Assembly (NCBI RefSeq): GCF_964204645.1
Contig: NC_134034.1
Location: forward strand, 8,506,962-8,570,961
DNA: 64,000 nt
DNA from: Tubulanus polymorphus
Taxonomy: Eukaryota; Animalia; Nemertea
Direction of reading: 5' to 3'
This document shows positions 1 to 39,438 of the stretch, one piece after another. A program made the translations under genes and the position numbers. Within the stretch, counting starts at the first letter, position 1, and each line of letters starts with the position of its first letter. The notes beneath the pieces are model-generated. The model made no database searches. It was not told the origin of the DNA and saw only the letters and a list, made by a program, of their open reading frames with translations.

Positions 1-445
1 TACTCTCGATCTATGTCAAACCGCCTATATGTAATTGTATTAGGTTGTTTACAAAAACATCTGTGCCGTCTTTCATATTCAGTTGAATGGGGCGCAGCTC
101 ATTTGAATATTGATCGAATGTGCTATTTCAGTTGAAAAGGATTAATCAATTACATCACAAAGGAACATCTGTTACAATCCAATAAACAATAGCAGTGAGA
201 TATCAAATAGAATTTAAATAAAATATAATAAAAAAACAATAACTTCAACTAGCTAGTGAATTCTATTATATTTTTAATATTTTCTTTTCAAGAAGAGAAT
301 ACTTTATATTTTGAATAGATTCAAATAGAAATTCTTTAAATTCAAATAGCTAGTATCAGTAGTCAATACTAGAATCCTTTAGCTTTAACTAGCTAGTATC
401 ATTTGAAGAATACTTATATTTTTTTGCTTTTTTTCTCTAATATAA

Positions 446-1048
446 ATGTCAAAGAAATCTAATAAGAATAGTATTGATATTGAAAAAACATTAGATGATT
501 TGGGTATAAGTGATAATAAAGATACAGTTGTAACTAGTTGTGCTCGAGTTAATTGTAATATAGATTATGAATACTATTTATATTGCAAGCATCATCTAGA
601 ACTATTGATTGCCGGTGGAAAAACTAACGAGTTTTTAAATGGAATTATTACTTTTCAAGAATTAGACTCTATGAAACCAGATAAAGTAATAAAATATTTT
701 AAGATTTATGAAGAAGCTAGATTAGCTAGAATAAATGATTCTATTTCAGATGGTATTGGCAAATGTTATTCTAAGTTATGTAACCGGTTAATACCAATTG
801 ATGATGAAAATAAATTATATAGTGATTCGAAAAATGACTACTTAGTTATGACTGAATTACAAAAATGGGTTGGATATGCTTCATTTCAATTAGGATCGGT
901 TATGACATTAATTTCTACCGGTGTCATAACATTTTCGAACATCAAACCTATGGAATATAAATCAGGTAAGAACGAAACAGATGTACTACAACCAAACGTC
1001 GAAACAGAAAATGAATCAGAACAAAAATTAACTAAAATAAATGAGTGA
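446..1048 (+). CDS. Polinton hypothetical protein with a hydrophobic segment near the C-terminus
   Basis: 200-aa ORF preceded by T7-N8-TAAATG; function not recognised. Confidence 0.75.
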   Translation: MSKKSNKNSIDIEKTLDDLGISDNKDTVVTSCARVNCNIDYEYYLYCKHHLELLIAGGKTNEFLNGIITFQELDSMKPDKVIKYFKIYEEARLARINDSISDGIGKCYSKLCNRLIPIDDENKLYSDSKNDYLVMTELQKWVGYASFQLGSVMTLISTGVITFSNIKPMEYKSGKNETDVLQPNVETENESEQKLTKINE

Positions 1049-1409
1049 TAGCGTTAAGAAAAAGGATTGATCTGAAAAACAAATTAAATGGGCAAGAGAA
1101 TTAGGTGAAAGATCTTCAGAATTAAAAAAAGCTAAGAAAAAGAAATTAACTGATATAAATGAATCACAGACTTTATCTGATATTGATTCAAATAACAATC
1201 CATCTGATTCTTCTAATGCTGGAAGTAATTATAAATTATATATTACAATTGGATTAGTAACAGTTATTATATTATCCGGTGTAATATATAAATCAAAATT
1301 CAAATCTGATGATAAAGATGATTCCAATGACAATAAACCTATCATACCAGAAAATAAATCAAATCATAAAGCCATTGAAACTAAATCTAAATTATTATTA
1401 ATGGATTAA
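1041..1409 (+). pseudogene. Small Polinton single-pass membrane protein gene with one nonsense codon (absent from ORF track)
   Basis: TAAATG start; reads MSDSVKKKD*SEKQIKWARELG...LYITIGLVTVIILSGVIY...LLLMD*. The TGA at codon 10 is plausibly CGA>TGA. Confidence 0.65.
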
Positions 1410-1415
1410 AAGAAG

Positions 1416-2497
1416 ATGAAAAAAGAACAATATTTAAGAGAGTTATATTATAACCCAGAAAGTGAAGTATCATGTTCTAACGTTTCAGAATTATGGGGTA
1501 AAATTAAATCTGATAATGAAAATATAAAATATAGTGAATTGAAATCATGGTTACAAAATCAACCAACATATCAAATCCATAAGAAAATGGATAAAACTTA
1601 TTTAACAAGAAAAGTTATGGTTTCATATATTGATCAACAATGGCAAGCAGATTTAATTTACATGAAGAGCTTAGAAGAATACAACAAAGGATATTTCTGG
1701 ATATTAAATGTTATAGACATATTCAGTAGATACGCATGGTCAATTCCAAAAATAAAACTTGTATAGAAGCAACAAATGCTTTTAAATCAATATTTAAAGA
1801 AGCTATACCAGATAAGATACAATTTGATGAAGGTAAGGAATTTTATAACAAACATTTTAAAAAACTATTATCTGATAACGATGTAAATTATTTTTCAACA
1901 CTCTCAGATAAAAAAGCATCTATTATAGAAAGATTTAATAAAACATTGAAAACTAGAATGTGGAAATATTTTATTGCTAATGAAACATATAAATATATCG
2001 ATGTATTAGATGATTTAGTGAAAGGTTATAATAATTCTAAACATAGTTCTATAAATATGAAACCTATACAAGCTAGAAAAGAAGATAATTCGGAAATAGT
2101 ATGGAATAATTTATATGGCGCATTTGTTACACACGATTTCGGTGAACCTAAATTTAAAATAGGACAACACGTTAGAATATCTAGATATAGAAACACATTT
2201 TATAAAGATTATACTCCAAATTTTACAGAAGAAATATTTAAGATTAAAAAGATAATATTAACTAAACCTTTTGTTTATAAATTAGAAGATCTAAAAGATG
2301 AAGAAATATTAGGTTATTTCTATGAACAAGAATTATCACTTGTACCAAATCCAGATGAAATAGAATACAAAATAGAAAAAGTATTGAAAACAAAAACTCT
2401 TAAAGGAAAAACGTATTCTTTGGTGAAATATAAAGGATATGATGATAAATTTAATGAATGGATTTTATCTAGTAAAATTAAAAGAATAAATGAATAA
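1416..2497 (+). pseudogene. Retroviral-like (rve) DDE integrase with C-terminal chromodomain; one frameshift near 1745
   Basis: QWQADL, IDIFSRYAW, IQFDEGKEF, IIERFNKTLK; C-terminal YKIEKVL..LVKYKGYDDKFNEWI. Split over ORFs 1416..1766 and 1736..2497. Confidence 0.95.
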
Positions 2498-3101
2498 AGA
2501 TTTATTTATATTTGAACCGCATAATATGTTAGTTACTGGAGTAACCAACTGTGGTAAAACACATTTCATATTAGATTTGTTAGAAACTATTTATAAGAAT
2601 CATTTTGATAATATAATATTATTCTGTCCTACTTATGACATGAATAAAACATATAATAGAGATATAGTTAAGATGAAAAAGTTTATTATATTAGATCCTA
2701 AAACAGTAAAAGATAATTTAGATAATTGTATAAAAATAGCAATTGATACTTATAAAGGATCAAATACATTATTCATTATAGATGATTGCGCTAATTTACA
2801 TGATTCAAAAGTGAGAGAAAGTGAGTTATGTTATCTAGCTTTCTCTGGAAGACATTTCGGGATAACAACATGGGTTTTAAATCAAAAATATAATTCAATT
2901 GTTAAAGACTTTAGGGAGAATATAAGATTTCTAGTTTTATTCTACAATAAAGATAGAAAATCTATGCAACAATCATTGGAAGAAAATCAAATTATACCTA
3001 CTGAATTACATGATGAATATATGAATAAAGTAAAGAATAATAAAGGTTCAAAATTATTACTGAGACTACAATTTCCCTATGAATATAAATTTATAAAATA
3101 A
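2490..3101 (+). CDS. A32/FtsK-HerA-like DNA packaging ATPase
   Basis: Walker A VTGVTNCGKT, Walker B LFIIDD, GRH motif, then NQ..FRENI. Confidence 0.93.
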   Translation: MNKDLFIFEPHNMLVTGVTNCGKTHFILDLLETIYKNHFDNIILFCPTYDMNKTYNRDIVKMKKFIILDPKTVKDNLDNCIKIAIDTYKGSNTLFIIDDCANLHDSKVRESELCYLAFSGRHFGITTWVLNQKYNSIVKDFRENIRFLVLFYNKDRKSMQQSLEENQIIPTELHDEYMNKVKNNKGSKLLLRLQFPYEYKFIK

Positions 3102-3119
3102 CTATTTATAATTTGGAAT

Positions 3120-3506
3120 ATTATAGAAACTAATTTATATATCTATGTACTAGACGTACGAGTAAGAAATTAAGATTCTTGCCAAGAAAGTAAGAAAGTA
3201 AGAATCGTGGGTAAGAATTCTTACGTACGTCTAGTATATAGATATATAAATTAGTTTTATAATAATTATTCTAAATTTAAATTATAAAAATGAATAAATT
3301 ATATGTTTTCTCTTAATAATAATAAAAATAGATTATATTATAACTATTTCTATACTTAGATTAATAATTTTATGTTTTTAATTTTTATGAAAACTATTAT
3401 ATATATATATATCTATGTACTAGACGTACGAGTAAGAAAGTAAGATTTCTTGGATTCTTGGATTCTTACTCGTACGTCTAGTATATAGTTATATAAATTA
3501 GTTTTA
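3120..3506. terminator. Two related long hairpins (3120-3263, 3389-3506) between convergent gene blocks; putative 3'-end signals
   Basis: Arms TATATATCTATGTACTAGACGTACG / CGTACGTCTAGTATATAG occur twice and abut the ATPase stop (3101) and the zinc-finger gene stop (3513). Terminator role is inferred. Confidence 0.5.
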
Positions 3507-3512
3507 TAATAA

Positions 3513-4672
3513 TTATTCTAATTTTGTTTCTAATATATTTATAAAATCATCTTTGTTTATATCTAATTCACCAAAAGTCTTAGGTAGATTTATTAATTTT
3601 AATTGAGCCATCTTAACATAATAATTAGTAGGTATATTAGCTTTTTCTCTTAATTTTTCTAAGTATTCATCAAAATCATCATAATCAAAATCAAAATGAT
3701 GTCCAAAATTATTTATCAGATAACTTAAATCTATTTTTCTTAAATATAATAATTTATATATTTGTTTAGGATTATCTTCTGCATAAGCTAATAATTTATC
3801 AAATAAGAACTTATAGAATATATAATATTAGTTAGTTTTAGGATTAAAATATTTGATATCATTATTTGGGTTATTTAACAATGGTATCATACTCACCATT
3901 TTATAAACATTAATTAGATGTAACTTTGATTTATAATGAGTATTTTCATCAACAGGTTCAATTTTTTTATTACAATATTGACACGTTTTATTTCTTTCCA
4001 TTTCTTCTAATTTCTTTTCATGTTCTTCTAACTTCCTTTCATTTTCGATATGCGCTTGAGATTTTTTATGTTTAGAAAATTACTTTTAGAAATATCTAAA
4101 TTACAAATGTTACAATGTTTTTCAGAATCATCAATTGTTTCATTATCATTAGTTTTAATTGTATCAACATTATCTGTTATATTATCTATGGTATCATTTG
4201 TTTCAATTGTATTAACATTATCTATGATATTATCTATGATATTATTATCAGATATATTATTATCATTATTATTATTTTCTTTTTCTATATGTTTATTTGA
4301 TTTCTTATGTGATGCCCAATTTTTATATGATATATATTTCTTACATACATCACAATATTTTTCATTTGTCTTTTTGGTTTTGATATCAGGTTCAATCTTA
4401 TCATTATTAGATGTAGAAGGTATTACATTATTAGACGTAGAAGGTATTACATTATTAGATGTAGAAGGTATTACATTATGATCAATTACATTACTTAAAT
4501 TATCAACAACACCACTTTTATTATTATCGATTTCTATTAGTTTAGTTTTATAAATTTTGAAAATAGGATCAAATATCAAAGCTATATTACAAGGTATTAC
4601 ATAATATAAACCGCCATTATTTTCATGTGTATCGATGTATGGAACATGTTTATATACTTTACCTCCTTCCAT
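3513..4672 (-). pseudogene. Polinton protein with three C2H2-like zinc fingers; frameshift and stops
   Basis: CDVC..HKKSNKH, CNIC..H and, after a frameshift near 4070, CQYC..HYKSKLH; reading continues to ..ILETKLE* at 3513. Contains a 24-bp x3 repeat (NNVIPSTS). Confidence 0.7.
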
Positions 4673-4742
4673 TTATTATATAAATTTTTATTAAAGTTAA
4701 AATTCTAATACATAACACTATTTAATTGAGAATTTACAATAT

Positions 4743-5948
4743 TTAATGCGCGTCAGATATGATATAAATGTGCATTTTGAAATTTTTGATACCTTTATTC
4801 TTTGTCATGAATAATTGTATTCCATCTTTAGTGTTCTGTAATTTTTTTCCAGAACCATGTAATGAATTATCCTCTGTTGTTCTAAAATCTAACCATAATG
4901 CATATTTATTACCGGTATAATAATCAATTTGATTAATGTTACAATTTTCAGATGATTTTACTTTTTCATTCATAAAATGTTTTCTAATATCTGGCCATTG
5001 ATCAATCATTCTCATTCCTTGACAAAATATTTTATTTGCTATTCCTTCGATAGTTATTTCTACTTTTGTTATTTCAGGATTATAATAATTATCAACATTT
5101 ATTGCGCCATTAGTATATGTTGCAATGGTAATAAATATTAATATACCTTTAATAGATCTTCTTGGGAAGTTAATATTCTCATTAATAATTTCATCATTTG
5201 CATTAATAGTAACAGTAAATTTATCAATATAATCATATAATAATGAAAATCCTTGATTGTATTTAGTTTGAATTATACTTGAAATATTTTCATCAGTTAC
5301 TGTATCATATTCTAAACATATATTCGATAATTTATAACTCATATCTTTATTAACGCTAGATATTACGATTTCATTTACAGGAGCAAATGTTATTTCGAAT
5401 ATAACGTCTTCTTGAATTGCATATTTATATAAAGGTGCATTATTATTTATCAATTCAAAGTCTAATGGAATTTTATATTTGCTTCCATATATACCTTTGA
5501 TCAATTTATCTACAGCATTAGTTAATATTGCATTATGCGCTTCTGATCTTAATTTATTTTGGTTTTCTGATTGGATGCCTTGAAATATCATATTATTTCT
5601 ATTTTCTTTAGTTAACCATAAATCTTTATAATGCATAAATAAATTATAATCATCTAATGAGAAAACTGTTTCTGGACCAATCTTTATTGTTAACTTTTTA
5701 ATCAAATATCTTCCAACATTATCAACAACATAATTATTATTATTACCGATTACTTTTATATCGGCTGATAAATAAATACTATTTGGAACATAAAAAGTAT
5801 TTTGTGTTAATCGAGGGATTCTAACATAAAAGGTTTCATCGGGATTAATATTAGAAGGGTTATGAGTAATTATATGATGTGATCTTTCTGCTTTAATAGC
5901 ATTAGATATTCTATGATTCTTAGAAGGATTGATATAACTCCCACTCAT
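4743..5948 (-). CDS. Major capsid protein (double jelly-roll), possibly C-terminally shortened
   Basis: 401 aa, beta-rich; HIITHNPSNI, YKIPLDF, NICLEYD, N.PRRSIKGIL, YALWLDFRT resemble invertebrate Polinton MCPs; genomic context. Confidence 0.82.
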   Translation of the reverse strand: MSGSYINPSKNHRISNAIKAERSHHIITHNPSNINPDETFYVRIPRLTQNTFYVPNSIYLSADIKVIGNNNNYVVDNVGRYLIKKLTIKIGPETVFSLDDYNLFMHYKDLWLTKENRNNMIFQGIQSENQNKLRSEAHNAILTNAVDKLIKGIYGSKYKIPLDFELINNNAPLYKYAIQEDVIFEITFAPVNEIVISSVNKDMSYKLSNICLEYDTVTDENISSIIQTKYNQGFSLLYDYIDKFTVTINANDEIINENINFPRRSIKGILIFITIATYTNGAINVDNYYNPEITKVEITIEGIANKIFCQGMRMIDQWPDIRKHFMNEKVKSSENCNINQIDYYTGNKYALWLDFRTTEDNSLHGSGKKLQNTKDGIQLFMTKNKGIKNFKMHIYIISDAH

Positions 5949-5968
5949 TTATTTAACAAAAAAATTAA

Positions 5969-7396
5969 TTATTTATTTTTCATCATGTTTACTAATCCAA
6001 AAATAATAGCACTTACAACTGTAATTAAACATAAAATAATATGTTCAGCAGCAAAGTTAATAATGTTTCCTGCAGATTTCAATATAAAACCAACAATTGA
6101 TGCAATAACTCCTGGCAATGCTGCGGCAGATTTTTTAGATAGTTCCCATAAATATTTAGCTAATTTCTTTAAACCATCTTTAACTTTATCTTGTATAGAA
6201 TTATTATCTGGGGGTTTATCCGGTTTATTGGGAGTAGGAGTAGATTTCAAAGCATTTGATATAGCTAAACCAATTGTTGTGAATAACATAGTTACAGCTG
6301 TTAGAATTGAAAGAATTGTTATTCCTTTAAACTTAAATAATAATTTTATTCTATCTTTCAATGATATTTTAGAATCTGGTTTTATTAGATATCTTTTAAA
6401 AACATCTTTTAATCTATTAATATTATAATCATATGATTTTAATAATAATTTAATTTTTTCTTTTTGTAATTCTATGTTATATTCTAAATCATCTTTTTCT
6501 TTTTCTAAACGTAATTCTTTTTGCCTATATTCTATTTCATCAATTACTTGATGATCTAAATCAGACCTTAATTTTTCTATTTCTTTATTTTTATCAGTTA
6601 ATTCTTTTTCTAAAGTTCTAATTTTAAAATCTCTTATACTTTTATCATGCGCAATTTTATCAGATGCAAGTCTTATACTAATAATTTCTCTTATTGCTTT
6701 ATCAGAAAATATATCTAAATCTTCTAATTCTTGATCTGTTGCATCAATTAATCCATTCGGTAAAAGTTTTTCAATTGGAACTTTATTTGATTTAAGTTTA
6801 CTAGTTTTGGAAGTTATATTCTGTTCGGAAGTTGTTTCTGTTTCTGGATTATCTTTGATTGTTTCAAATAATTCATTAATTCTTTTTTTAAATACTCTTT
6901 TATTTTTATTAATTTCTTCTTGTGTTACATCTTCTATTTCATTACTATTTCTCATTCTCTTAATTCTAGATAGTAATGAGTCAGACTTAAGCAAAGTTGA
7001 TTTTGCTATTATTTTTTCTTCTTTTTTATTAGAGATATTAATATAATAATCATCTTTCAATTGATAATGATATTCACCATCTAAAAACTTTAATTCTTGT
7101 ACTAAAAGTCTGGCGCCTCTGGCATTTATATTATATCCAGATTCTTCAAATACATGTTTGAAATTATAAATATATTCATTATATTCTAAATTTTCCTTTA
7201 ATAAACCTGGATTTTCATTTACAATAGGTATTCTCGATCTAGTTCTATCAAATTCATCTGTTGATGGGGCTTTAGTACCACTTTCTTCTAAATTAGAATT
7301 ATATGTTGTATCATCATCATTATCAATATTAGTATCAGCAGTCATATAATCATCATTGTTAGTATTGGCATCATCATTATTTCCCCTGTTTTCCAT
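5969..7396 (-). CDS. Coiled-coil protein with two C-terminal hydrophobic regions (putative virion/membrane protein)
   Basis: Acidic N-terminus, long coiled coil, GITILSILTAVTMLFTTIGLAI and IILCLITVVSAIIFGLV. Probable original start at 7426 (TAAATG mutated to TAAAAG). Confidence 0.75.
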   Translation of the reverse strand: MENRGNNDDANTNNDDYMTADTNIDNDDDTTYNSNLEESGTKAPSTDEFDRTRSRIPIVNENPGLLKENLEYNEYIYNFKHVFEESGYNINARGARLLVQELKFLDGEYHYQLKDDYYINISNKKEEKIIAKSTLLKSDSLLSRIKRMRNSNEIEDVTQEEINKNKRVFKKRINELFETIKDNPETETTSEQNITSKTSKLKSNKVPIEKLLPNGLIDATDQELEDLDIFSDKAIREIISIRLASDKIAHDKSIRDFKIRTLEKELTDKNKEIEKLRSDLDHQVIDEIEYRQKELRLEKEKDDLEYNIELQKEKIKLLLKSYDYNINRLKDVFKRYLIKPDSKISLKDRIKLLFKFKGITILSILTAVTMLFTTIGLAISNALKSTPTPNKPDKPPDNNSIQDKVKDGLKKLAKYLWELSKKSAAALPGVIASIVGFILKSAGNIINFAAEHIILCLITVVSAIIFGLVNMMKNK

Positions 7397-7426
7397 TCCA
7401 ATATCTTCTACACCTTCAACATCCTT

Positions 7427-8814
7427 TTACATAATAAAAAAATAAAATTTAAAATATAATATTCTTCCGATTACAATTCCTATACAAGTTATAGCTAATT
7501 TAGTATTTTCATGGGATTTATTATCATCATTTAGTTTAATTATTTCATGTTGAATATTATCAGTTCTAATATTTTCTGATGTATTGTAATCTTTTATTTT
7601 AGAATCATTATTTAATTTAATATAATTAGTTTTAGTTTATGTTGATTGAATATGTTTTTTATTTTTTTCACCTTCCATTAATTTTGGAGCAGTAATAATC
7701 TTTTTATTTATATCATTCAATCCAAATGAATTATTTATTGTTGCAGTTTTAATTAGATTATCATAACCAATTATGTTTCCCATCTTTAAAACTAAATCAT
7801 TAGAAATAATAAATAGATTACGGCCTATACAATAATTTAATCTAATATGTGATTTATCTAAATAATTTTGATATCTTACAATGTTTTCTGGAATCGATCT
7901 ATTTTTATCATTATGAATGGAATTGTTTCTGTGTATCAAATGATGTATTTAAATTTCAAATTATTGGGGATCTTGTTTCAACTTGTGCACCTAGAATACA
8001 TATCAAATAAGTTCTAATAGATTGATTTATTCTTTGTATACCAGCGTTAGTAAAACCTTCACTATTTTCTAAAATAAAATTAACCCAACCATCATTATTT
8101 TGTTGTTGTTTGATTTAAATATAATATTTTGGTATTTCATTCCATTTAAACGTTTTTGAGTTTGTATTTTTTATTTTCTTTCTATATTTTTTAGTATAAG
8201 GGACAGCAAATTGGAAATGATGAATTATTCATTGCATGCAAAGCTTTCTCTACTTAAGATAAATCTCCCCCTGTAATTGTTCCCATCTTTGATCTAAAAT
8301 CAGAATTATTTATATCTATATTAAATTCATTACATATTTTATAATACTTTGATAAATTAATGTTATTATCTAATTCTTTAAAATATCTAGACCCAGGTAA
8401 AGGACACTCTAATTCATTTAATATTAATCTTATTTGAAAGTATGTATGAAATCTAAAGAGTGATAATATTAATGGTAAACTTGGTTTATTTAAATGATCA
8501 TTCCAACTTATTCCGCACCCTGTTGTTGCGCAATAAACAGCAAAATTTAATTGGTTTTGCCAGAATTGCATATTTGATTTTAACATCCATAATTTTGCTT
8601 TACTTAATTCTTTTTCAAAATTAATTTCATAAACATTGAATATATTTTCCATCTTTACATGAAAATTATTACTTTCAGTAACATAAATATATAAATCAAT
8701 TAATGAATCTAAAACTTCATTTCTATATGTAATATCTTTATCAAAATCTATTGCAGGAATATTATATTTAATTGATTTATTATATTGGAAAGCTTTTGGA
8801 AAACTATCTGCCAT
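7427..8814 (-). pseudogene. Conserved Polinton protein with C-terminal TM; several frameshifts
   Basis: WQNQLNFAVYCATTGCG; out-of-track segment EGFTNAGIQRINQSIRTYLICILGAQ; IVRYQNYL; ends HENTKLAITCIGIVIG..*. Joins ORFs 8254..8814 and 7637..7939. Confidence 0.7.
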
Positions 8815-8834
8815 TTATATAATTAAAAAATTAA

Positions 8835-9263
8835 TAATTAACTAATTCTTTTAATGATTTATCTTGTTCTTCAACTGTTATATGACCATTTGAACTTATT
8901 ATATAATCTAGTGTATTCTTTAATTTATTAATTTCTTTTATATTAGTTTTAATTTTTTCTTTATTACTTTTTATATTTAATTTTGAACTTATACCAGTTA
9001 AACACTTGAAACAATCCTAATACACCAATTGATATAGCTAAAGGTGTTAATGGACTGAATATTGCTAGAAATGTTATTACAGAACTAATTGTAACCGAAC
9101 CACTTATAATCAAATAATATATAATATTAGATTTTAAATATTTTTTCTTTTTAACTTTTAAGTCACTTTCAAATTCTAATATTTGTTTTTCTAAATATGT
9201 TTTTAATTTAGTTTTACTGATATCATGAGGAATAATATCAATATTATCAACTTTATCTTCCAT
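8835..9263 (-). pseudogene. Small two-TM Polinton protein, frameshifted near the 3' end
   Basis: TAAATG start; hydrophobic stretch IIYYLIISGSVTISSVITFLAIFSPLTPLAISIGVLGL; coiled-coil tail continues in another frame. 3' end approximate. Confidence 0.6.
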
Positions 9264-9281
9264 TTATTTAGCAAAAAAAAA

Positions 9282-9707
9282 TTACTCATAAGTAAACTTA
9301 TACGCTACAAATATAACAATAACAGTTCCACCTAAAATCCATATTATTTCATATTTCTGTTGTTCTTTACTTGGGGTATAATAATCTGATATTGTAGGTT
9401 TATGTAGATGTAATTTTTCTTTATTTGTTACCGCGTTATATAAACTCATTGCATCATCAACTGATTGAAAATCTCTATGTGAAATCTTCTGATCATGTAA
9501 TTCTTTATTGATGTAATCCATATAGTTTTGTCTCTTTTCTCTATATTCTTCCGCTGCTTTATTATATTTCTCTAATGCTAAGGTATGTCTTTTTTGTTCT
9601 GTTAATGAACTATTTTTATCAATATGTTTAAATAAATATCCACCACCAGTAAATGCTAAAGCGTTAACAATTGCCGATCCTATAATAGTTACAGCAGCAG
9701 AAGCCAT
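9282..9707 (-). CDS. Small Polinton protein with N- and C-terminal hydrophobic segments
   Basis: MASAAVTIIGSAIVNALAFTGGGYLF..coiled coil..IIWILGGTVIVIFVAY; TAAATG start. Confidence 0.8.
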   Translation of the reverse strand: MASAAVTIIGSAIVNALAFTGGGYLFKHIDKNSSLTEQKRHTLALEKYNKAAEEYREKRQNYMDYINKELHDQKISHRDFQSVDDAMSLYNAVTNKEKLHLHKPTISDYYTPSKEQQKYEIIWILGGTVIVIFVAYKFTYE

Positions 9708-9731
9708 TTATTTAGTAAAATAATTATGTAT

Positions 9732-9953
9732 TTATATGGAAGGAATATATTTTTGTTTTTCCAAATAATCAATAGTTAAATTAGATAAAGTAACTGCTAA
9801 TGTTAATTTTAAAATATCATCTATATCAAATCTATCAACATTAACACTTCCCATTTTGAATACTTTTTTTAATACCATTGAATAACCAACAGTTCCAACT
9901 GATAGTAATGCTCCATTATATACTCCAGTTATTATCCACTTATTATCACTCAT
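9732..9953 (-). CDS. 73-aa Polinton hydrophobic protein
   Basis: TAAATG start fused to the upstream stop; ends DYLEKQKYIP; compact gene packing. Confidence 0.7.
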   Translation of the reverse strand: MSDNKWIITGVYNGALLSVGTVGYSMVLKKVFKMGSVNVDRFDIDDILKLTLAVTLSNLTIDYLEKQKYIPSI

Positions 9954-10310
9954 TTATTTATCAAAAAAATTACTATCATCAAAATATTTAGTCAACTTAT
10001 TTATGATTATTTCAACATTTATTTCATTACTAGTTTCATTTGTATATATTTCAATTATTATTTTTTTAATATCATCGATGATAAAATCTTCATCTAATTC
10101 ATAAAATCCTAAAGATTCTCTAATTAAATTAGTAATCTTTTCTACATTTAAAGTTTCTTTATCTATTGTTGTTTCATACTCAAATGTTGTTTCATTAGAA
10201 AATGCAATATTTTTAATATGTGTAATTACATCATTAACGTTAAATTTCATTTCTTTCTCATGTTTAAAATCAAACCCAAAACATATACTCGGTCCAACAG
10301 TTATATTCAT
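9954..10310 (-). CDS. Polinton hypothetical protein
   Basis: 118-aa acidic ORF with T-run-N7-TGAATG start; stop abuts the next ATG. Confidence 0.65.
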   Translation of the reverse strand: MNITVGPSICFGFDFKHEKEMKFNVNDVITHIKNIAFSNETTFEYETTIDKETLNVEKITNLIRESLGFYELDEDFIIDDIKKIIIEIYTNETSNEINVEIIINKLTKYFDDSNFFDK

Positions 10311-10326
10311 TCATATAGTGAAAAAA

Positions 10327-11083
10327 TTACTCTCTACATCTTATAACTAATTCATATATCACAGGAAAGTTATTCAAATCAATTAAATATCCATTATGAT
10401 TTCTTATTTCTAATTTAAAATTATTAAATTTAGGAATGCATGGTTTGAAATCACATTCTGTTAAATAATAATTTATTTGAGTTCCAAATTGTTTAACATT
10501 TTTTTAGCGGTAAAATATTTAGTATACTAGAACTACAAATTGTTTCTTTAGTTGCTTCGAAAGTTTTTGTAGGCTCGATTAAATTGCAATAAATATAAAA
10601 GTGTGTAAAAGGTATTATATTTGAGCTGCCTTCTGCGTTTCCAGTAACTGTAAGCGGTTTAATTCCTAACATTTTAGCCAGTGGTTTGTTTACCATAAAT
10701 TTATGTTGTTCATTAGATATCTTTATTCTAATTTTATTAGTACTATCAATTTTATTAAATTTAATTTCAAATAAAGAAGTGCCCCCGATTTTCAACCGAG
10801 CTCTTCTATTAATTTCCTGCGCTAATGATTCTAAATTATATAATCCTGGTTTTAAAAATATATGAAACCATTTATCTTTATTTCTCATATAAATCATAAA
10901 CCCTCTATGTTCAAAAGTTTTATCCGATATATTATAAAAAGAATTACATAAACTTATATTAACTAATTTTAAATCTACACAATTCTTGAATTCTCTATCT
11001 AATTGTACTAGTAAATTATGTGATCTATAATTTGTAAGTTTTCTTGAATCAACAAATATTCTGTATTCTTTTAATTCTACCAT
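10327..11083 (-). pseudogene. Minor capsid (penton-like single jelly-roll) protein, frameshift near 10500
   Basis: N-terminal IFVDSR..L...F.....L..ISL.NSFYNI, then FYIYCNLIE, SSILNILP; out-of-frame C-terminus KLEIRNHNGYLIDLNNFPVIYELVI typical of Polinton/PLV pentons. Confidence 0.7.
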
Positions 11084-11111
11084 TTATTTTACATATTTTC
11101 TTATTCGAAAT

Positions 11112-11453
11112 CTATTTCATGGTGCCCTTTTTCATTCTTACCTTTGTATACGAATGGAAATCTCCAGAACATAATTCTTCTAAATCTTCACTTGATAATC
11201 TATGAAATCTATCCGGTAAATATGTTCTGAATTTATATGTATTTCCTTTTAATCCTTCATATTCTAAATGTATAACTAATTTATCTCCATATTTGTTAGT
11301 AACTCTATCAATATTTGTAATTAGATATTTCTTATGGATTATTAATTCTGTTAACTTTTTGAATTTATAATCTACAGATTTTACATTTGAAGTATCTTTT
11401 ATTCTATCTAGAAATAATTTGTTGTTCTCACTGTGCGCTTGTTTACTCTCCAT
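11112..11453 (-). CDS. Probable OB-fold/SSB-like small protein next to pPolB
   Basis: FKKLTEL..KKYLIT....VTNKYGDKLVIHL...TYLPDRF pattern seen in small Polinton proteins; fold inferred. Confidence 0.5.
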   Translation of the reverse strand: MESKQAHSENNKLFLDRIKDTSNVKSVDYKFKKLTELIIHKKYLITNIDRVTNKYGDKLVIHLEYEGLKGNTYKFRTYLPDRFHRLSSEDLEELCSGDFHSYTKVRMKKGTMK

Positions 11454-11482
11454 TTATAATACATATTTTTATTAAAATTTGA

Positions 11483-14400
11483 TTAACACGTTATAATCCT
11501 ATTCATTATCTCGTTCTCTTTTGTTTCTTCTCTTTTAAATTTTAAGTATTCATCTAAATTACAACCATAAGCAACTGTATGAATTCCATCATCTAAAATA
11601 TATCTTTTATCATCAAATGGGTTTAGACTTATCTTATCAATTTCTTCAATAAACATTTCATGATCTTCAGATCTTAAACATCTCATTTTATGTTTTCTAA
11701 CTTCTTCATTGAATATAGAATTGATGTAATCTTTGAAATGAATATTCTTTTCTACTACACTTTTGGTTATTCCTTTTAACTTTTTAGCTTCATGTTCTTT
11801 AGTTTTATATGAATACATTTTAGATCTAATACCTATGAATTCAATCATTTCTTCACCACCTAATTTATCTTTGAATTTACCGGGCACCTTTTTATTATCA
11901 TTGCTAAACAATTCATGATTTTTAGGATAATTACTGAAATCAAAATGATATTTTAATGTTTTTAAATCATTAGTTATGTTATCAGTTTTTATCTTTAATA
12001 TGTAACTGTCGGTATCAAAATATAGTATTTCTATATGTTTTTCTCCAAAAAGTGGTTGTAATACATTATAATAGAATTCATACATTAGTAATTTTGATAA
12101 TTCTAAAACTGAAGCGCCAACATAGATTGGTTTATTAAATTTCATTGATGTTCTTCTCATCTTAACTGCAGCTAAATTTTCATCAAATATTCTGTTACCA
12201 ATGAACTTAGGATATGTTTGTAAATGTCTAATTCTTTTACCATTACTTACTAACTCAATATCATTTCTATTTCTAATATTTTCACAAGTCTTACCATAGA
12301 ATGCATTATTCATTAACTTGAAGAAATCTTTCTCGAAATCAGTTTTAGCTTCAGTTCTCTGTTTGGTGTTAAAATCTATATATTTTTCTAACCACTTAGA
12401 TTGACTGAATGAAATATATCTATGTACTTTTTTTAGAACCATTCCTTGTTTTGGATAAAACTTTAACATTCTATAATGTACTACATAATTATATTTATCT
12501 TCTTGAGTTACCATTAACTTTTCTGTATGAATATGATTTTCGGGTTTAATTCTTTTTTGGTAATTTGATAATTCTTCATGAGTTACAGTTTTATGTTCGG
12601 GACAGTAAGCTAGATTTCTAGATTTAAATTTAATATGTTCAGGATATTCTAAATCTACAACAAAGAAGTAACCAGTATCTGAATCATCTGCAATATCTAG
12701 AATTCTTTTCTTCCAATCAAATTTATCATTATTTTTATTCTGTAAAACTTCAGTTAATTCAAATACTCCATAAGGTTGTGGTTCCATCATTGCCCAACCA
12801 TACAAATTATTTGCATCTATATATAATAACTTATATCCAGGGTTATCATTTACATTGAAATATCTATCGCCTAATACACCTGAAACTCCTCCTCTTATAG
12901 ATTTTTCAAATAATAGTAATTGATCTATATTTGTTAACAAATCCATTTTTATATCTGTAAATTTTAATCCACAATCCCATGTTAAACCTGGGCTAGAATA
13001 ACAATGACAAGGATCAATGTTAAAATATTTTAGGTTTACATCTCTAAACCTTTCGAATATATCGGTTAACAATAATACATTTGATTTTAAATATAAATGT
13101 ACTAATTGTCCATGATTTTCTATTTTGAAATGATTCCAAATATCCAATGTTCTATTATATACTTCATCTTTAACATATTCATTTTTTTATTCATCATAAA
13201 ATTGTTCTTTTAATAATTCAGTTATGTTAAAATCATTATGAATTTTATAGAAAGAATATGGAATTGCTCTATTATATCTCATTAATTTAAAATCATCATT
13301 ATTTGGGTAATATTCTTTTAATATCTTTAATTCATCATCAACTAATGATTTTGATAAGTTATCTAATGAACTATTTAAAAATCTATATGAGTCTATAAAT
13401 CTTAAACACACAAATTGGAATGATATATAATTCTCAGATGTTTTATCTAACATTTTAAATTTATAAGTTGGTATTTTATCTTTTGATCTATTTGAATTTA
13501 ATCTTTCTATTTCATTATTAATTTCTTCTATTTTATGACATAACTGTTTGGTGAATAAATGTGCATCATATCCTGATAGATTATGAAATATAACTGGTAC
13601 AAAATTAATTTTCTTAGCTTGTAAGTTACAATTCTCATGCGCGGCGCCTCTAAACTTTCCATTCAAATGATCATGGTCTCTTACTTTTTTATCTTTATAA
13701 TTAAATATCTTTTCACAATAATAACATTTATCTGCAAACTCAAATTCTTCTTTTTCTTCTTCTGTCATTATAATTTCTATATTTGTATTCAATAATTTAC
13801 TAAATCTTATTTCATATTCAATTAATAAGTCACAAAAATGATTGATTACATTTTCATTTCTATAATCATAATATTCACTTTCAATTAGTTCTGGATAATC
13901 AGATTTAATATATAACCTGAAAGCAGCAGCTGATTGATGAATCTTTTTAATTGTATTTGTTTTTGGTGGTTCATCTGAAAAATCATTTTCATTAGAATTT
14001 AATTTCTTTCTTTTATAATATATTTCTTTTCTATCTTGATAAGTTAATTCTTTATTTAATGATTCAAAATCTCCATATATAACAAATGGTACTTTATTTT
14101 TGTAATCATATTTTTTGAATTCTAATATTTTATCCTTTTCATTTGATAAAACTAATTTACAATAATCATGATTTTCACATAATTGTTTATGATTTAATAC
14201 TAATTTAATGTACTTTCATTACTGAATCTATGTAAACATTTTCTACAAAGATATATTTTATGGTGATCATTTTCTGATTTAAAAAATAAATCGATTTGTT
14301 TAATCCACATATAATGATTCTCATAATATAATATATCTATAACATCATTTGAATCATAATCTTTTGATAGGTATAAAGGTTCTAATGTATAATGTTTTAT

Positions 14401-15549
14401 ATTGTTACCTTTTGTATTTGGTAATTTGATTAAATCAAATACATTTATTCTTAAATTATTATCTCTTTCTATTTTTGGGATGTTTTTAATTTTAAATTTT
14501 TTTAAATTTAACAGGATACTTATCTATCTTATAATTATTTTCAAATGGTTTATAATGAGTTAATCTAAAACTATGTTGTTTATAATCTTCAACTGGGTGT
14601 AAACAACTTATTATAGCCCATAGAAAACATTTATCATCTTCATTTTGTACATTTATTACAGCATTAGTTTTAAATGGTAGTTTAATATAACTCGATGCTT
14701 CAATATCTGGTTCTTTATAATATGATACATTATTTTCATCAATTGGTTTCGATTTAGTTAACTTATTATATTTTGTGTTATAAACATGTAAAGTCATAAA
14801 TATTATTTCATCAAATATTAAACCAGATCCTTCAAAATATTTCTCTTCTATTTTAGTTTTTACTTCATTATAACATTTATCTAATTTATCATCTATATGT
14901 TGTTTTGAAATAATATGTTGTGAATGAGAATTTATATTATATATTGGATTATCTTTCCAGATTTTATAAACTTTACTTTAACTGATATACTTATTTTAGG
15001 GTATTCAACATCAGTTATTATTTTTATTATTTCTTTCATATTTTCTAAATGTTTTTTATTTTCTTCTAATGTTTTTCCTTTATGAAATTTAAACTCGATA
15101 GCTGCTGGGCCAATATCACTTTTAAATGCTTCGGTTATCTCTATATCTTTTTTATTACCTAATGAATTAATATAATTTCTTACATCTTCCATGTATGGTC
15201 TTTTATTGTTTAATTTATTTTTTATGCTTTTAATTGTCTTCTGTTTCTTATCATTATCTTTATCAAAATAATCTTCACCTAAAATATCATTATTCTTATT
15301 TCTAATATGACTTTTAGATTTTAAATGTTCTTTATAATATCTTTTATCACTGAATGATTGATTACATGTATCATATTTGTATGTTTCTTTTTCATTCGTT
15401 AATTCATCTAATTTAGTTTCTAATATATCATCTTCATATTCCAATTTCAATTTATTCTCTAAATGTGTTTTAGTTTTATTGTGTCTTGCTTTTTGGGATT
15501 TATCTATATTGATATTACATGTTGGGCAGTAGTACTTATTTGCTTCCAT
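11483..15549 (-). pseudogene. polB: Protein-primed family B DNA polymerase polyprotein (zinc fingers/terminal-protein region, vOTU-like protease, exonuclease with EndoVII/HNH insert, polymerase); several frameshifts
   Basis: YIDANNLYGWAM, KLMNNAFYGK, YFDTDS; exonuclease IYGDFES and FHNLSGYDAH; VRDHDHLNGKFRGAAHENCN; NVQNEDDKCFLWAI and NHYMWIK; N-terminal CPTC..HNKTKTH. Confidence 0.95.
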
Positions 15550-15600
15550 TTTAATATCAAATTTTTTTTTTAAATTGATTTTAGAAGTTCAATGATTTAT

Positions 15601-15987
15601 ATATGAATTATTTCAATCACACTTTACTAACACTTTTAATGTTTAAAAATCTAACTCATACAAATATGAATATTGAAATAATGTTTAAAATATATCTATA
15701 TATCTATTCTATAAGAGCTTACACTTTTATATTGAATAATCTGTCAATTTAAATGTTATTCATGTAAATTATGTTTATATATTTATGAATATCTTAAGAG
15801 TAATAGGGGTAATGGGCTTTCAGGTTAAAGGTTGAAGGGGCAAGTGAGTAAAAAATGAAAATAACAATAATTTACAGTTGAATAAGGAGTGTGCGCGACT
15901 AATTCAACTGTAAATTATTGTTATTTTCATTTTTTTACGAGCTCGACCCTTCGACCTTTGGCTTGAAAGCCCATTACCCCTATTACT
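15601..15987. repeat. Right terminal repeat of the Polinton, including a 189-bp terminal hairpin (15799-15987)
   Basis: AGTAATAGGGGTAATGGGCTTTCA...TGAAAGCCCATTACCCCTATTACT; 15601-15800 aligns by eye with 37369-37590. Confidence 0.88.
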
Positions 15988-34900: not shown

Positions 34901-36224
34901 CTATACAATACAACCTTCAAAATTCTAATACCAGGCCGTCTCTCTATTTTGGAAATCATCGACGAGAACAACAATAGCCACTTATCAATCTATAATTGTT
35001 ATGCCCCATCATTGAACGTACACAAAAAAGCCTTCTTTGAAGAATTAATTTAACGACAAAATAAATACGAATAACCCAACTATCTTAGCCGGCGACTTTA
35101 ATATGATACTCGACCCAATTGATAGTAGCAAATTACAAATTGTGAAAAACTCCAAATCAATCCTCCAAGCCCTAACACTGATCCTACACAATAATAACTT
35201 AAATGACATTTTTCGTTTCAAATACCCCAATAAACATGAATACACGTATACCCAGAGGGGATTCGATACATCGACTAGCTTCAACACGCCTCGATAGAAT
35301 ATATACTAACAACACTCAACATATTGAACCATTCAGAAATAGAACACATAACTATACCATTTTCAGATCATAGTGAAGTAAAACTAACCATTCCACACTT
35401 GATATTAAACACCATCGATAAAACTCAAACGAGTAGAACTTAGACCTTTGGAAATGTAATAATTCGATCTTAAGCCACCCAAAAATTAAAGAAAATATAA
35501 GAGATGAAATTGAATCCTACGTGAACTATAATAACAAAACTTTAAGATCAGCCCAAGGTTCATGGGACGAACTAAAAACTAACTTCAAAAAATATCCGGC
35601 GAAATTAACCAAGAACACATAAAATTAGAAATTAAACGAAAAACTAATTTCAAAAACACAAATGTATAATAACATCAAATGTAAAACAACACTTACTGAA
35701 ATTAATAATCTAAATCAGCAAATCAACGACCTTCAACTACATAGAAATAAAGGCTACCAAATCCAATCACGATAGTAATAGGGGTTTAGTTGTTCTATAC
35801 GAAAGGTCGAACGGTCGAGCTCGTAAAAATGAAAAACATGAAAATAATAACAATTTCTACTTGAATTAGTCGCGAAACTCATAAAAATGAAAAATAATTC
35901 TCGCACACTCGAATTTATTTTTCATTTTTTATGAGTTTCACTCCTAATTCAAGTATAAATTGTTATTATTTTCATGTTTTTCATGTTTTTCATTTTTTAC
36001 TCATTTAACCGTTCAACCTTTAGTATAGAACAACTAAACCCCTATTACTCTTAAAATATTTATATACATGAATAAAATATGAATAACATATAAATTGATT
36101 GATTATTCAATATAAAAGTGTTAGTAAAAAAGTAACGAGTAATTAACGAGCTCTTATATATGGATATATAGATATATTTTAAACATATTTCAATATTTAT
36201 ATTTGTATGAGTTAGATTTTTAAA

Positions 36225-36541
36225 CATAAAAAGTGTGAATAAAGTGTGAGCGAAATAATTCATATTTAAAACAGTGAATATTTATATTTATATGCGTTAA
36301 ATTCTTATTTTTAAACATTAAAAGTGTGAGTAAAGTGTGAGTGAAATAATTCATATTTAAAACAGCTAATATTTATATTTATATGTGTTAAATTCTTGAT
36401 TTTTAAACATTAAAAGTGTGAGTAAAGTGTGAGTGAAATAATTTATATTTAAAACAGTGAATATTTCTATTTATGTGCGTTAAATTCTTATTTTTAAACA
36501 TTAAAAGTATGAGTAAAGTGTGAGTGAAATAATTCATATTT
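36225..36541. repeat. ~91-bp tandem repeats in the left mini-Polinton TIR (mirrored at ~36990-37415)
   Basis: AAGTGTGAGTAAAGTGTGAGTGAAATAATTCATATTTAAA recurs at ~36231, 36322, 36414, 36505. Confidence 0.85.
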
Positions 36542-36956
36542 AAATATAGATAATTTGTTTATTATCAAAATTGAAATAATATAATTGTCTTTTTTCAATT
36601 CTTAAGTTAATCAAATCATTGTTATCTTTAGAAAGTATTATATCACTATCTCTTTTATTAAAAGGAGTTTTAAGAATATTAATTATGTTTTCATCTAAAA
36701 TTCCTTTAAAATTTAAAACTGTATTGAACAATTTAGGATTTTTAACGCCATTATCAAAAGTATCGACTAGTTCAGTAATTAAATAAGTTTCATTTGATAA
36801 TATTTGATTAATCATAGTTATGTTATCGATTTTATAATGTCTTGCAGACACTAAATTTGTTGCTGAAATGAAATTTCTAATGTTAAACTGTGAAAATGAT
36901 TTATTGGTTTCATTGATTTCGATTTTAAAGCTGGGTTCTTCTTCTTCTTTCTTCAT
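36540..36956 (-). CDS. Orphan 138-aa cargo ORF of the mini-Polinton (MKKEEEEPSF...)
   Basis: Fills the unique region between the TIRs with no stop; preceded by TTTTAATAAAAATTTTGTTATAAAAATG, so ATG 36956 is preferred over 36986. Confidence 0.7.
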   Translation of the reverse strand: MKKEEEEPSFKIEINETNKSFSQFNIRNFISATNLVSARHYKIDNITMINQILSNETYLITELVDTFDNGVKNPKLFNTVLNFKGILDENIINILKTPFNKRDSDIILSKDNNDLINLRIEKRQLYYFNFDNKQIIYI

Positions 36957-39438
36957 TTTTATAACAAAATTTTTATTAAAACTCATTCAAATATAAATAT
37001 TCAATGTTTTAAATATGAATTATTTCACTCGTTAATTACTCGTTACTTTTTATATTAAAAATCAAGAATTTAACACATATAAATATAAATATTAACTGTT
37101 TTAAATATGAATTATTTCACTCACACTTTATTCACACTTTTAATGTTTAAAAATAAGAATTTAACGCACATAAATAAAAATATTCACTGTTTTAAATATA
37201 AATTATGTCACTCACACTTTACATGTTTAAAATTCAAGAATTTAACACATATAAATATAAATATTAGCTGTTTTAAATATGAATTATTTCACTCACACTT
37301 TACTCACACTTTTTATGTTTAAAAATAAGAATTTAACGCATATAAATATAAATATTCACTGTTTTAAATATGAATTATTTCGCTCACACTTTACTCACAC
37401 TTTTTATGTTTAAAAATCTAACTCATACAAATATAAATATTGTAATATGTTCAAAATATATCTATATAAATATATATAACAGCTCGTTAATTACTCGTTA
37501 CTTTTTTACTAACACTTTTATATTGAATAATCTATCAATTTATATGTTATTCATATATATTTTATTCATGTATATAAATATTTTAAGAGTAATAGGGGTT
37601 TAGTTCGGTTGAGTGAGTAAAAAATGAAAAACATGAAAATAATAACAATTTCTACTTGAATTAGGAGTGAAACTCATAAAAAATGAAAAATAAATTCGAG
37701 TGTGCGAGAATTATTTTTCATTTTTATGAGCTTCCCGTTTTCATGTTTTTCATTTTTACGAGCTCGACCGTTCGACCTTCGGTATAGAACAACTAAACCC
37801 CTATTACTCACGAGCGAACACACTTTTAGAAAATGAGAACAGCCCACTATATATTAAAAGTCTACTAGAAACAAATTACAAAAAAGTACAAATTGAATCC
37901 CTCCAAGACAAAAACGGCGATCTAAAACATAGTATAGAAGACCTAAAATCGATAGCTTTCGAATTCTATCGAAACCTTTACACGAAACAAATACTCAAGG
38001 AAACGGATCAGGAAAACGCAATCTCCCATATCAATCAGAAATTAACAAATGAACAAGCCAACTCTCTAGAACATTTGATAACCATAGAAGAAACACATAA
38101 AGCACTAAAACAAATGAGCAATAACAAATCTCCCGGCCCAGATGGACTAACAAAAAAATTCTATATTGCCTTTTGGGATCAAATTGGAAATGAACTGACC
38201 GAAATATATAACAACATCCTATTATCAAATTCCCTAACGGAAACACAAAAAAAAATCGCGCACATAAGAATAATTTCGAAAAAAGGCGACGTCACACTAA
38301 TAAAAAACTGGCGACCTATATCTCTTCTTAACGTTGACTAAAAAATTCTAACAAAAATTCTATCGAACAGACTTAAAACCGTAATGACACAACTAATCCA
38401 CCCCGACCAAACTTGCGGCATTCCTAATAGGCAAATCTTTGATAACATCGATTTGGCCCAAGACATTTTTTCAATTTTCATAGATCCAAAAAACAACACA
38501 TGCCATTATGTCCATCGACCAGGAAAAAGCTTTCGACCGCTTAGATCATGATTTCTTGAAAAAAAGTAGTTGATAAACAAAATTTTGGCCCAAATTTAAA
38601 AGAATGGATAAATATACTCTACGAAAATCCCAAATCCTCAATAATAATAAATAACCAATTAACTAACCCCATCAACATCCAAAGAGGGGTAAGACAAAGC
38701 TGCTCCCTCTCCATGCAACTTTTTATCCTTTGCATAGAAATTATAGGAACCATGATTCACAACAATACTAACATTAAAGGTATCGCCCACCCTGGTGGAA
38801 AAACATACTCCAAGCTAACACAATACGCCGACGACGTTAATACATACATCACATCACGCTTAGAAATAGAAACAATTTATGAAATATATGACAAATATGG
38901 ACTAGCATCTGGATCAAAAATTAATAGAGAAAAAACCGAAATCCTCCTTATAAACCCTACGATCCAGAACCCATATCCTCCAGAATATACAAAACCTTCA
39001 ATAAAACTTCTAGGACTTCAAATAAGACGAATTACCAATGAAGACCTCTGGACCCCAATCATTGAAAAAATAAACAATACCTTCAAATTTATGACTATCC
39101 GAAATCTCAATTTTATTCAAACAGCTCAACTAGTAAACACATATATCTTGAGTAAATTATGGTATATCGCAAAATTTCTGGAACCACCGTAAGAATATAT
39201 AAGCCTCATCCAAAATGGACTGTTCACTTTTATCTGGAAAGGCAAATTACCGATCATATCAAGACAATTAACCATGTGTCAGAACATCAATAACGGCGGA
39301 TGCAACGTAACCATCATTGAAAAGAAACTCAAATCACATCTACTACAAAAAAAATATATAGACTTGCTATAACACTAACACGACAAAATATCAGACCTTC
39401 ATGGGCACCGTTCGTAATTTATTCACTTGGCCCAACTA

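Follow-up and report, generated by a model that had tools for sequence, protein, structure and literature searches.

The locus considered here raises the question of which transcription machinery reads the genes of an animal polinton. The window, i.e., the whole stretch of 64,000 nucleotides analysed from contig NC_134034.1 of the ribbon worm Tubulanus polymorphus, carries at positions 1-15987 a decayed capsid-encoding polinton with a G + C (GC) content of 20-27%, in which the integrase, PolB and several other genes are fragmented in this copy. Animal polintons may be autonomous elements of the nucleus or satellites of large DNA viruses, a question that a 15-base signal before nearly every gene makes directly testable. 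A preliminary description of the window had proposed that these genes start at TAAATG behind a run of T, in the manner of vaccinia late promoters, and that a cytoplasmic pox-like virus transcribes them. The observation is real, lineage-wide and sharper than first described, and the mechanism behind it likely involves a helper virus.

The 11 exact TAAATG starts of the preliminary description are all present (446, 1041 and 2490 on the forward strand; 4672, 5948, 8814, 9263, 9707, 9953, 11083 and 11453 on the reverse strand). The start at 10310 reads TGAATG and the one at 7426 TAAAAG, likewise as described. Across the 64-kb window TAAATG is not enriched (97 observed versus 98.9 expected), so the signal is positional. 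Within 1-15987 it occupies 11 of 15 candidate true starts, whereas 34 among the 662 remaining ATGs carry it (5.1%; binomial test, P 7e-12). Those 15 starts were picked by hand; a mechanical gene call, which counts fragments of broken genes too, placed it at 10/18 starts (P 5e-9). A T at position -9 relative to the T of TAAAT is found in 11/11 TAAATG starts of the window versus 15/34 non-start TAAATG sites (P 0.001). This T is also kept at 10310, at 7426 and at the PolB start, and is absent at the integrase start. The integrase (1416) and PolB (15549, TAAAATG) had been described as lacking the exact motif, which is true of this copy and is not a family trait: TAAATG starts the integrase of locus L002 and the PolB of loci L014 and L027. 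The two exceptions are therefore not an early class, and the early/late split that they seemed to imply finds no support in intact relatives, which have TAAATG at both genes.

The capsid alignment retrieved 24 metagenome loci, and the window together with L001-L014 and L019 was taken as the lineage set (20-44% GC). In this set, under one mechanical gene call, TAAATG was found at 67/85 called starts versus 119/2864 other ATGs, and the first ATGs of non-gene open reading frames (ORFs) showed it in 18/334 cases. The 18 exceptions comprise eight internal starts of broken genes, one shadow ORF, five TAAAT/TAAAAT variants, two TGAATG and two motif-free starts. The outgroup loci L015-L018 and L020-L025 gave 1/50 starts, 21 other pPolB elements from viral contigs 16/248, and seven pPolB elements from genome contigs 5/28, all five in L109. 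The division into lineage and outgroup was made after motif and capsid identity had been seen. The capsid tree, a quick tree that omits L003 (a near-copy of L002), came later, and the 15 motif loci included in it all lie on one side of a branch with 97% support in the Shimodaira-Hasegawa-like approximate likelihood ratio test (SH-aLRT), with sister elements that do not have the motif. The TAAATG start is thus a lineage trait. Neither capsid relatives nor ATPase relatives were found in viral contigs, and no capsid relatives in prokaryote genomes. A distant element, L027:1-9034 (PolB 37% and ATPase 27% identical), has TAAATG at 7/7 genes; its integrase carries an extra N-terminal region, presumably protease-like. 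In L018:83-2492, a sister outside the clade, three of the four called starts have TAAAAATG, a variant with a longer A-run, which occurs back to back across a gap of 37 nt.

The form of the signal was examined on the 74 motif starts (67 of the lineage and seven of L027), which gave 61 promoters after near-identical upstream sequences had been dropped. A T at -9 is present in 56/61 of these (92%) versus 37% of 123 non-start sites (P 1.5e-13, a value that overstates independence, as the 61 include orthologs), and in 19/23 promoters from loci of at least 32% GC. The better rule is T-N8-TAAATG, in which a single T stands exactly 9 nt ahead of the T of TAAAT; a lineage of capsid-encoding polintons has this start signal in common. 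A T at -10, the N9 position, occurs in 41/61 (67%); positions -12 to -7 are T-rich, and an A at -1 is found in 50. The T-run described earlier is real and partial: four T with a 4-10 nt spacer precede 34/61 promoters versus 13/123 non-start TAAATG sites, and shuffles gave 11.0 +/- 2.8, none of 2000 reaching 34. In L004, L006 and L014 the ATG is separate and comes after TAAAT, an arrangement also found in vaccinia A3L and A6L (PMC7117657 Table 1), so the unit is TAAAT rather than a stop codon joined to ATG.

A division into two promoter classes, late and intermediate, was considered and rejected, because the A-rich subset is wrongly spaced and keeps the T at -9. In this subset (AATAAAAA; 4672, 11453 and their orthologs) TAAAAA lies just 9 nt ahead of TAAAT, and the arrangement of poxvirus intermediate promoters, in which a TAAAAA core precedes TAAA by about 14 nt and the region near -10 has no conserved T, was not found. 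The poxvirus early terminator TTTTTNT does not mark gene ends (1/17 convergent, 7/41 tandem and 2/10 terminal). Its scarcity in coding strands, 12 observed versus 35 expected, is mostly a general avoidance of homopolymers shared by other elements, with a weak residual beyond it (P 0.02-0.04).

The features of the window element are as follows.

434..448, forward strand: T-N8-TAAATG signal of a 200-aa ORF (446-1048) that is kept in relatives and has no family match.
1029..1043, forward strand: T-N8-TAAATG signal at the start of a small conserved ORF (1041-1409) that a stop breaks in this copy.
1416..2497, forward strand: rve integrase with a C-terminal chromodomain, split over two frames, its start without the motif (translation, Pfam).
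2478..3101, forward strand: T-N8-TAAATG signal and A32-type packaging ATPase, ORF 2490-3101 (Pfam Pox_A32, E 8.6e-12).
3127..3525, no strand: nested inverted repeats separating converging gene blocks (repeat analysis).
3516..4684, reverse strand: T-N8-TAAATG signal (4670-4684) with a variable ORF, zinc-finger-like, whose start is at 4672 and which is fragmented here (sequence).
4743..5960, reverse strand: double jelly-roll capsid protein with a TAAATG start at 5948 (structure model with a predicted local distance difference test score, pLDDT, of 83.5; Foldseek E 2e-14).
5969..7438, reverse strand: protein of 475-485 aa with a hydrophobic C-terminus, its start degenerate here (TAAAAG) with the T at -9 retained.
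7640..8826, reverse strand: T-N8-TAAATG signal (8812-8826) and a conserved protein of about 440 aa, fragmented here (conservation in relatives).
8964..10322, reverse strand: four small ORFs of 99, 141, 73 and 118 aa, with TAAATG at 9263, 9707 and 9953 and TGAATG at 10310.
10493..11095, reverse strand: T-N8-TAAATG signal and a candidate minor capsid protein (position, and a profile match with the corresponding slot of other polintons).
11112..11465, reverse strand: T-N8-TAAATG signal and a 113-aa ORF (sequence).
11483..15561, reverse strand: pPolB with an endonuclease VII domain, broken, start at 15549 with TAAAATG (PolB motifs, Endonuclease_7).
15799..15987, no strand: right terminus, a 189-bp imperfect palindrome ending ...CCCCTATTACT (inverted-repeat analysis and read departures).

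Several of these genes are intact in relatives. The integrase homolog L002:4463-5548 (rve E 1.7e-9) starts with TAAATG, as does the 485-aa homolog of the 5969..7438 protein (L001:4328-5782). The best Foldseek matches of the capsid model are the capsids of Paramecium bursaria chlorella virus 1 (PBCV-1), an iridovirus and other large viruses (E 2e-14). The protein of about 440 aa (window 7640-8814; L001:2996-4321) has 2217 relatives at E<=0.001, and the confident model of its 442-aa form (pLDDT 88.5) has no match in BFVD or Pfam. The four small ORFs each have a T at -9, the first three with hydrophobic stretches, and the 113-aa ORF presumably resembles the single-strand-binding-type ORFs of polintons. 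The pPolB has no PolB family match in Pfam; its translation contains the motifs DANNLYG, NNAFYGK and YFDTDS, an Endonuclease_7 domain (E 7e-6) and 37-44% identity to full-length pPolBs. A Pfam scan of 82 proteins recognised no family of RNA polymerases or late transcription factors, although remote homologs could escape such a scan, and no helper-derived gene was recognised by Pfam or NCBIfam. An adenovirus-type cysteine protease was not detected by Pfam in the window or in L001, each of which is without one end, so that the gene could lie outside. The close relative L001 carries a deoxynucleoside kinase under the same promoter (L001:10343-10981; Pfam dNK E 1.7e-31), which would fit replication outside S-phase nuclei.

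The right terminus lies at 15987, past which 1829 reads diverge from the window sequence; the left terminus was not found within the window. The terminal sequence is present twice, head to head, inside the 189-bp palindrome, and a 2-kb non-autonomous derivative at 35774-37808 is built alike at both ends. This derivative has palindromic ends (AGTAATAGGGG...CCCCTATTACT) matching the polinton and internal tandem repeats. Both of its ends are present, and its flanks CACGAT/CACGAG form a 6-bp target duplication with one mismatch. The depth of the window element is 400-890 in most bins (read run X6, 85% cut-off; three interior bins 42-125) versus 3-5.5 in the lowest host bins (90% cut-off), which indicates about 10^2 copies of the polinton. 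In read run X5 the repeats at 3127-3525 reach a depth far above the rest of the element and are possibly a separate inserted repeat. Gypsy-type domains were detected in the host DNA flanking the polinton, where one Gypsy-type protein has 100% identity, across the part searched, to a Tubulanus polymorphus record, in keeping with this nemertean as the likely host. We take 17600-63000 to be dense in remnants of non-long-terminal-repeat retrotransposons, Gypsy and Harbinger-like elements.

In vaccinia the late promoter has TAAAT(G) over the start codon and one conserved upstream T among weaker T's (PMC11980589; PMC5294985), and slippage at this element gives poly(A) leaders; the element is retained in salmon gill poxvirus (PMC4542343) and occurs in an entomopoxvirus gene (PMC3061580), while late genes of African swine fever virus have TATA instead (PMC7163114). 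Several traits of the vaccinia late promoter recur in the polinton lineage: TAAATG overlaps the start codon, in TAAAT-A variants the ATG comes a few bases later, a tract rich in T includes one strongly conserved T roughly one helical turn upstream, and intergenic gaps are very short. Unlike the vaccinia late class, the lineage uses the signal at essentially all genes, including polymerase and integrase, and no early- or intermediate-type class was found in it. Virophages use the promoters of their helpers, and mavirus and Sputnik their helpers' late promoters (10.1101/2022.07.28.501842). Because no polymerase or factor is recognisable in the element, because there is no room for templated leaders and because one signal stands before nearly all genes, transcription by a helper is favoured: T-N8-TAAATG is probably a promoter of poxvirus late type whose reader is the RNA polymerase of a large DNA virus that co-infects the cell. 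Candidate helpers split about evenly between a pox-like virus and another nucleocytovirus. By analogy with vaccinia, transcription would start inside the AAA of TAAAT and slippage would add a poly(A) leader, giving mRNAs of the form A(n)-AUG for which a templated 5' untranslated region is unneeded. If the element behaves as mavirus does, integrated copies would stay silent until the helper infects the cell and all genes would then be expressed together, with replication by its own pPolB, packaging by its own ATPase and capsid, and re-integration through the rve integrase.

The motif might also owe its existence to AT richness, to stop-start overlap in a compact genome or to a bias of start context, with no promoter function at all. 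The element is indeed poor in GC and its genes are tightly packed, and a G follows the ATG in 40/61 starts, as in Kozak-type contexts. However, the background of 4-5% (and 18/334 at the first ATGs of non-gene ORFs, as given above) faces 73-79% at starts, so that the signal stands clear of AT-matched sequence, and the motif is retained in L005-L007 at 36-44% GC (9/11 genes). The stop codon of the upstream gene is the motif's TAA in just 2/41 tandem genes, and for 14 of 22 divergent starts the opposite ATG is just 19-34 nt away and both ends carry the motif, so that stop-start coupling is not the cause. Kozak bias is not the cause either, as position -3 is a T, a poor Kozak context, and we know of no translation signal with a fixed T 12 nt ahead of the ATG. 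An origin without promoter function is thus highly improbable. A nuclear origin of the transcripts deserves more attention: the motif could be an unusual initiator of host RNA polymerase II with almost leaderless mRNAs, or an AATAAA that ends the upstream transcript and is followed immediately by the next start, the element being an autonomous nuclear virus or transposon. Its high germline copy number and mobilised non-autonomous derivative speak for this, as do the 32/74 starts that read AATAAATG, the AATAAA within 60 nt after the stop in 23/61 genes versus nine on the other strand, and the transcription of other animal polintons in unmanipulated tissue (PMC11131425). Yet 42/74 starts have no AATAAA at that place (28 read TATAAATG), and the motif stands at both ends of divergent gaps, where no upstream gene needs ending. 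Position counts over the 61 promoters revealed no conserved TATA-like element at -25 to -30, and the ATG is not preceded by an AG that could serve as splice-leader acceptor. Coding sequence does not avoid AATAAA (159 versus 153 expected, a weak test in which other pPolB elements are alike), and the sister elements in the capsid tree manage without the motif. Reading by the host nucleus is on this evidence unlikely.

Alternatively, a companion element in the cytoplasm could supply the polymerase, or some copies of the family could do so, as with yeast pGKL1/pGKL2; the motif might otherwise be the relic of a helper no longer met. Polintons are the ancestors of the yeast virus-like elements (PMC11161782), which rely on a TAAAN initiator, poly(A) leaders and a pox-related polymerase of their own (PMC6211774). 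The window copy, for its part, is decayed. On the other hand, position counts gave no upstream element like ATNTGA, for which no pattern search was made, and no gene for such a polymerase was recognised by Pfam in the window, the 11.5-kb L001 or the 9-kb L027. Moreover, the motif has been kept in loci with capsids of just 50-75% identity, which speaks for selection that continues and against a relic. We regard a companion element or a vanished helper as distinctly improbable.

The helper-virus reading has its own difficulties. The conserved T lies at N8 in the polinton lineage versus N9 in the published vaccinia late consensus, T-N9-TAAATG (PMC11423596 Table 1), although the vaccinia P11 promoter has a T at both positions (PMC7117657 Table 1). 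Non-pox large DNA virus contigs share TAAATG at 49/204 genes, in a set selected by motif scans, and L027 has the T at -9 in just 4 of its 7 TAAATG genes. The canonical-type Maverick L109 has 5/16 TAAATG and three TAAAATG starts, a sign that the pattern may be more widespread among polintons. No helper genome emerged when viral contigs were scanned twice for the motif (35 and 20 loci), and the element's signature appeared in L027 only; the Pfam scan of 82 proteins gave no poxvirus RNA polymerase subunit or late factor. No transcript was found either: among the runs listed no RNA run holds the element, and run X8, taken to be RNA, gave four weak contigs that count neither for nor against expression. 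The roughly 10^2 germline copies and the derivative with its 6-bp target duplication imply repeated access to germline nuclei, which is not easily accounted for by a strictly cytoplasmic helper, and the coral polintovirus genes of PMC11131425 are transcribed in ordinary coral samples, in which helper status was not examined. These points weigh against a helper, and some of them against a poxvirus in particular. Judged from sequence alone, the motif would best be called a large-DNA-virus late type whose closest described match is the poxvirus one, and not a poxvirus promoter itself. Of the preliminary claims, the two-part build of a late promoter stands, with the spacing one base short and TAAATG shared by non-pox contigs; the inference of a pox-like cytoplasmic helper keeps the motif, its build and the lack of a recognisable RNA polymerase in the element, and gets no support from intact relatives for the early/late split that it implied.

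Among the non-pox large DNA virus contigs the T at -9 was found in 17/36 unselected TAAATG starts, and several contigs have TAAATG without it. On one 505-kb contig, L081:1430-15446 has TAAATG at 11/17 gene starts, with a T at -10, the vaccinia spacing, in 7/9 unselected starts. In L109:1024-7567, misbinned in a bacterial genome, eight consecutive-type genes start with TAAATG or TAAAATG, and TTTAAAAA or TTAAATAA lies 14-18 nt ahead of the starts; this would be a second promoter with another spacing, nearer to the consensus of vaccinia intermediate promoters.

Should a helper virus read the signal, the promoter would be a sequence fingerprint for locating it, and a cytoplasmic DNA virus would then be expected in a host group for which the matches listed contain none. 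The signal also offers a simple sorting of polinton lineages by likely helper. A bolder version, in which ribbon worms and other marine invertebrates are infected by an undescribed lineage of pox-like viruses of the cytoplasm, whose late promoters are shorter by one base than those of vaccinia, and the polinton is the endogenous virophage of that lineage, present in germlines in hundreds of copies as an inherited parasite triggered by infection, is to our mind doubtful.

Among the matches listed, with subscription papers outside the scope, no published description of a T-N8-TAAATG promoter in polintons was found, and the literature match for polinton, TAAAT and promoter together concerns yeast elements. 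The promoter is unmentioned in the main texts of two preprints on the diversity of polinton-like viruses (PLVs; 10.64898/2026.10.13.758929 and 10.64898/2026.06.19.733378), the latter of which places a few animal elements outside the main Maverick groups, and in that of the description of basal egoviruses, placed in marine sediments (10.1101/2024.03.23.586382).

With animal Maverick/Polinton elements, including coral polintoviruses, the window element shares pPolB, an rve integrase with chromodomain, an A32 ATPase, a double jelly-roll capsid, AGT...ACT ends and, on the derivative, the 6-bp target duplication. Capsid relatives at 37-40% identity lie on large animal contigs, one of them named Mactra antiquata. 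The window element differs from these Mavericks in having no protease match, several membrane-type proteins and the start motif. Its capsid profile has no match to the capsid of L109 and leans to clusters resembling Capsid_N and NCLDV (nucleocytoplasmic large DNA viruses); this profile, A2, matches no capsid in L086-L113, L109 included. The PLVs associated with entomopoxviruses (AHEV_PLV1/2, CBEV_PLV1 and Ca_PLV1) were proposed to be parasites of poxviruses in animals (PMC11296320), and the preliminary description had mentioned polinton-like elements found with entomopoxviruses. They carry an adenovirus-type protease and an L2-mu-like protein, and the two with PolB have no detectable integrase, whereas the window element, compared by description only, has an rve integrase and no protease match and is not evidently kin; the main text of that paper contains no promoter analysis. 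Yeast pGKL1/2 are likewise polinton-derived and AT-rich, with a TAAAN initiator that leads to poly(A) leaders (PMC6211774). They differ in having their own polymerase and a required upstream ATNTGA, and in lacking capsid, integrase and integration. The pairs mavirus and Cafeteria roenbergensis virus (CroV), Sputnik and mimivirus, and Gezel-14T and Phaeocystis globosa virus (PgV) share with it the plan of a small capsid-encoding element with an integrase, its own replication gene, no RNA polymerase and one motif before most genes. These satellites differ in that they live in protist hosts with relatives of mimivirus, which have other motifs, as helpers, whereas the host of the polinton described here is an animal.

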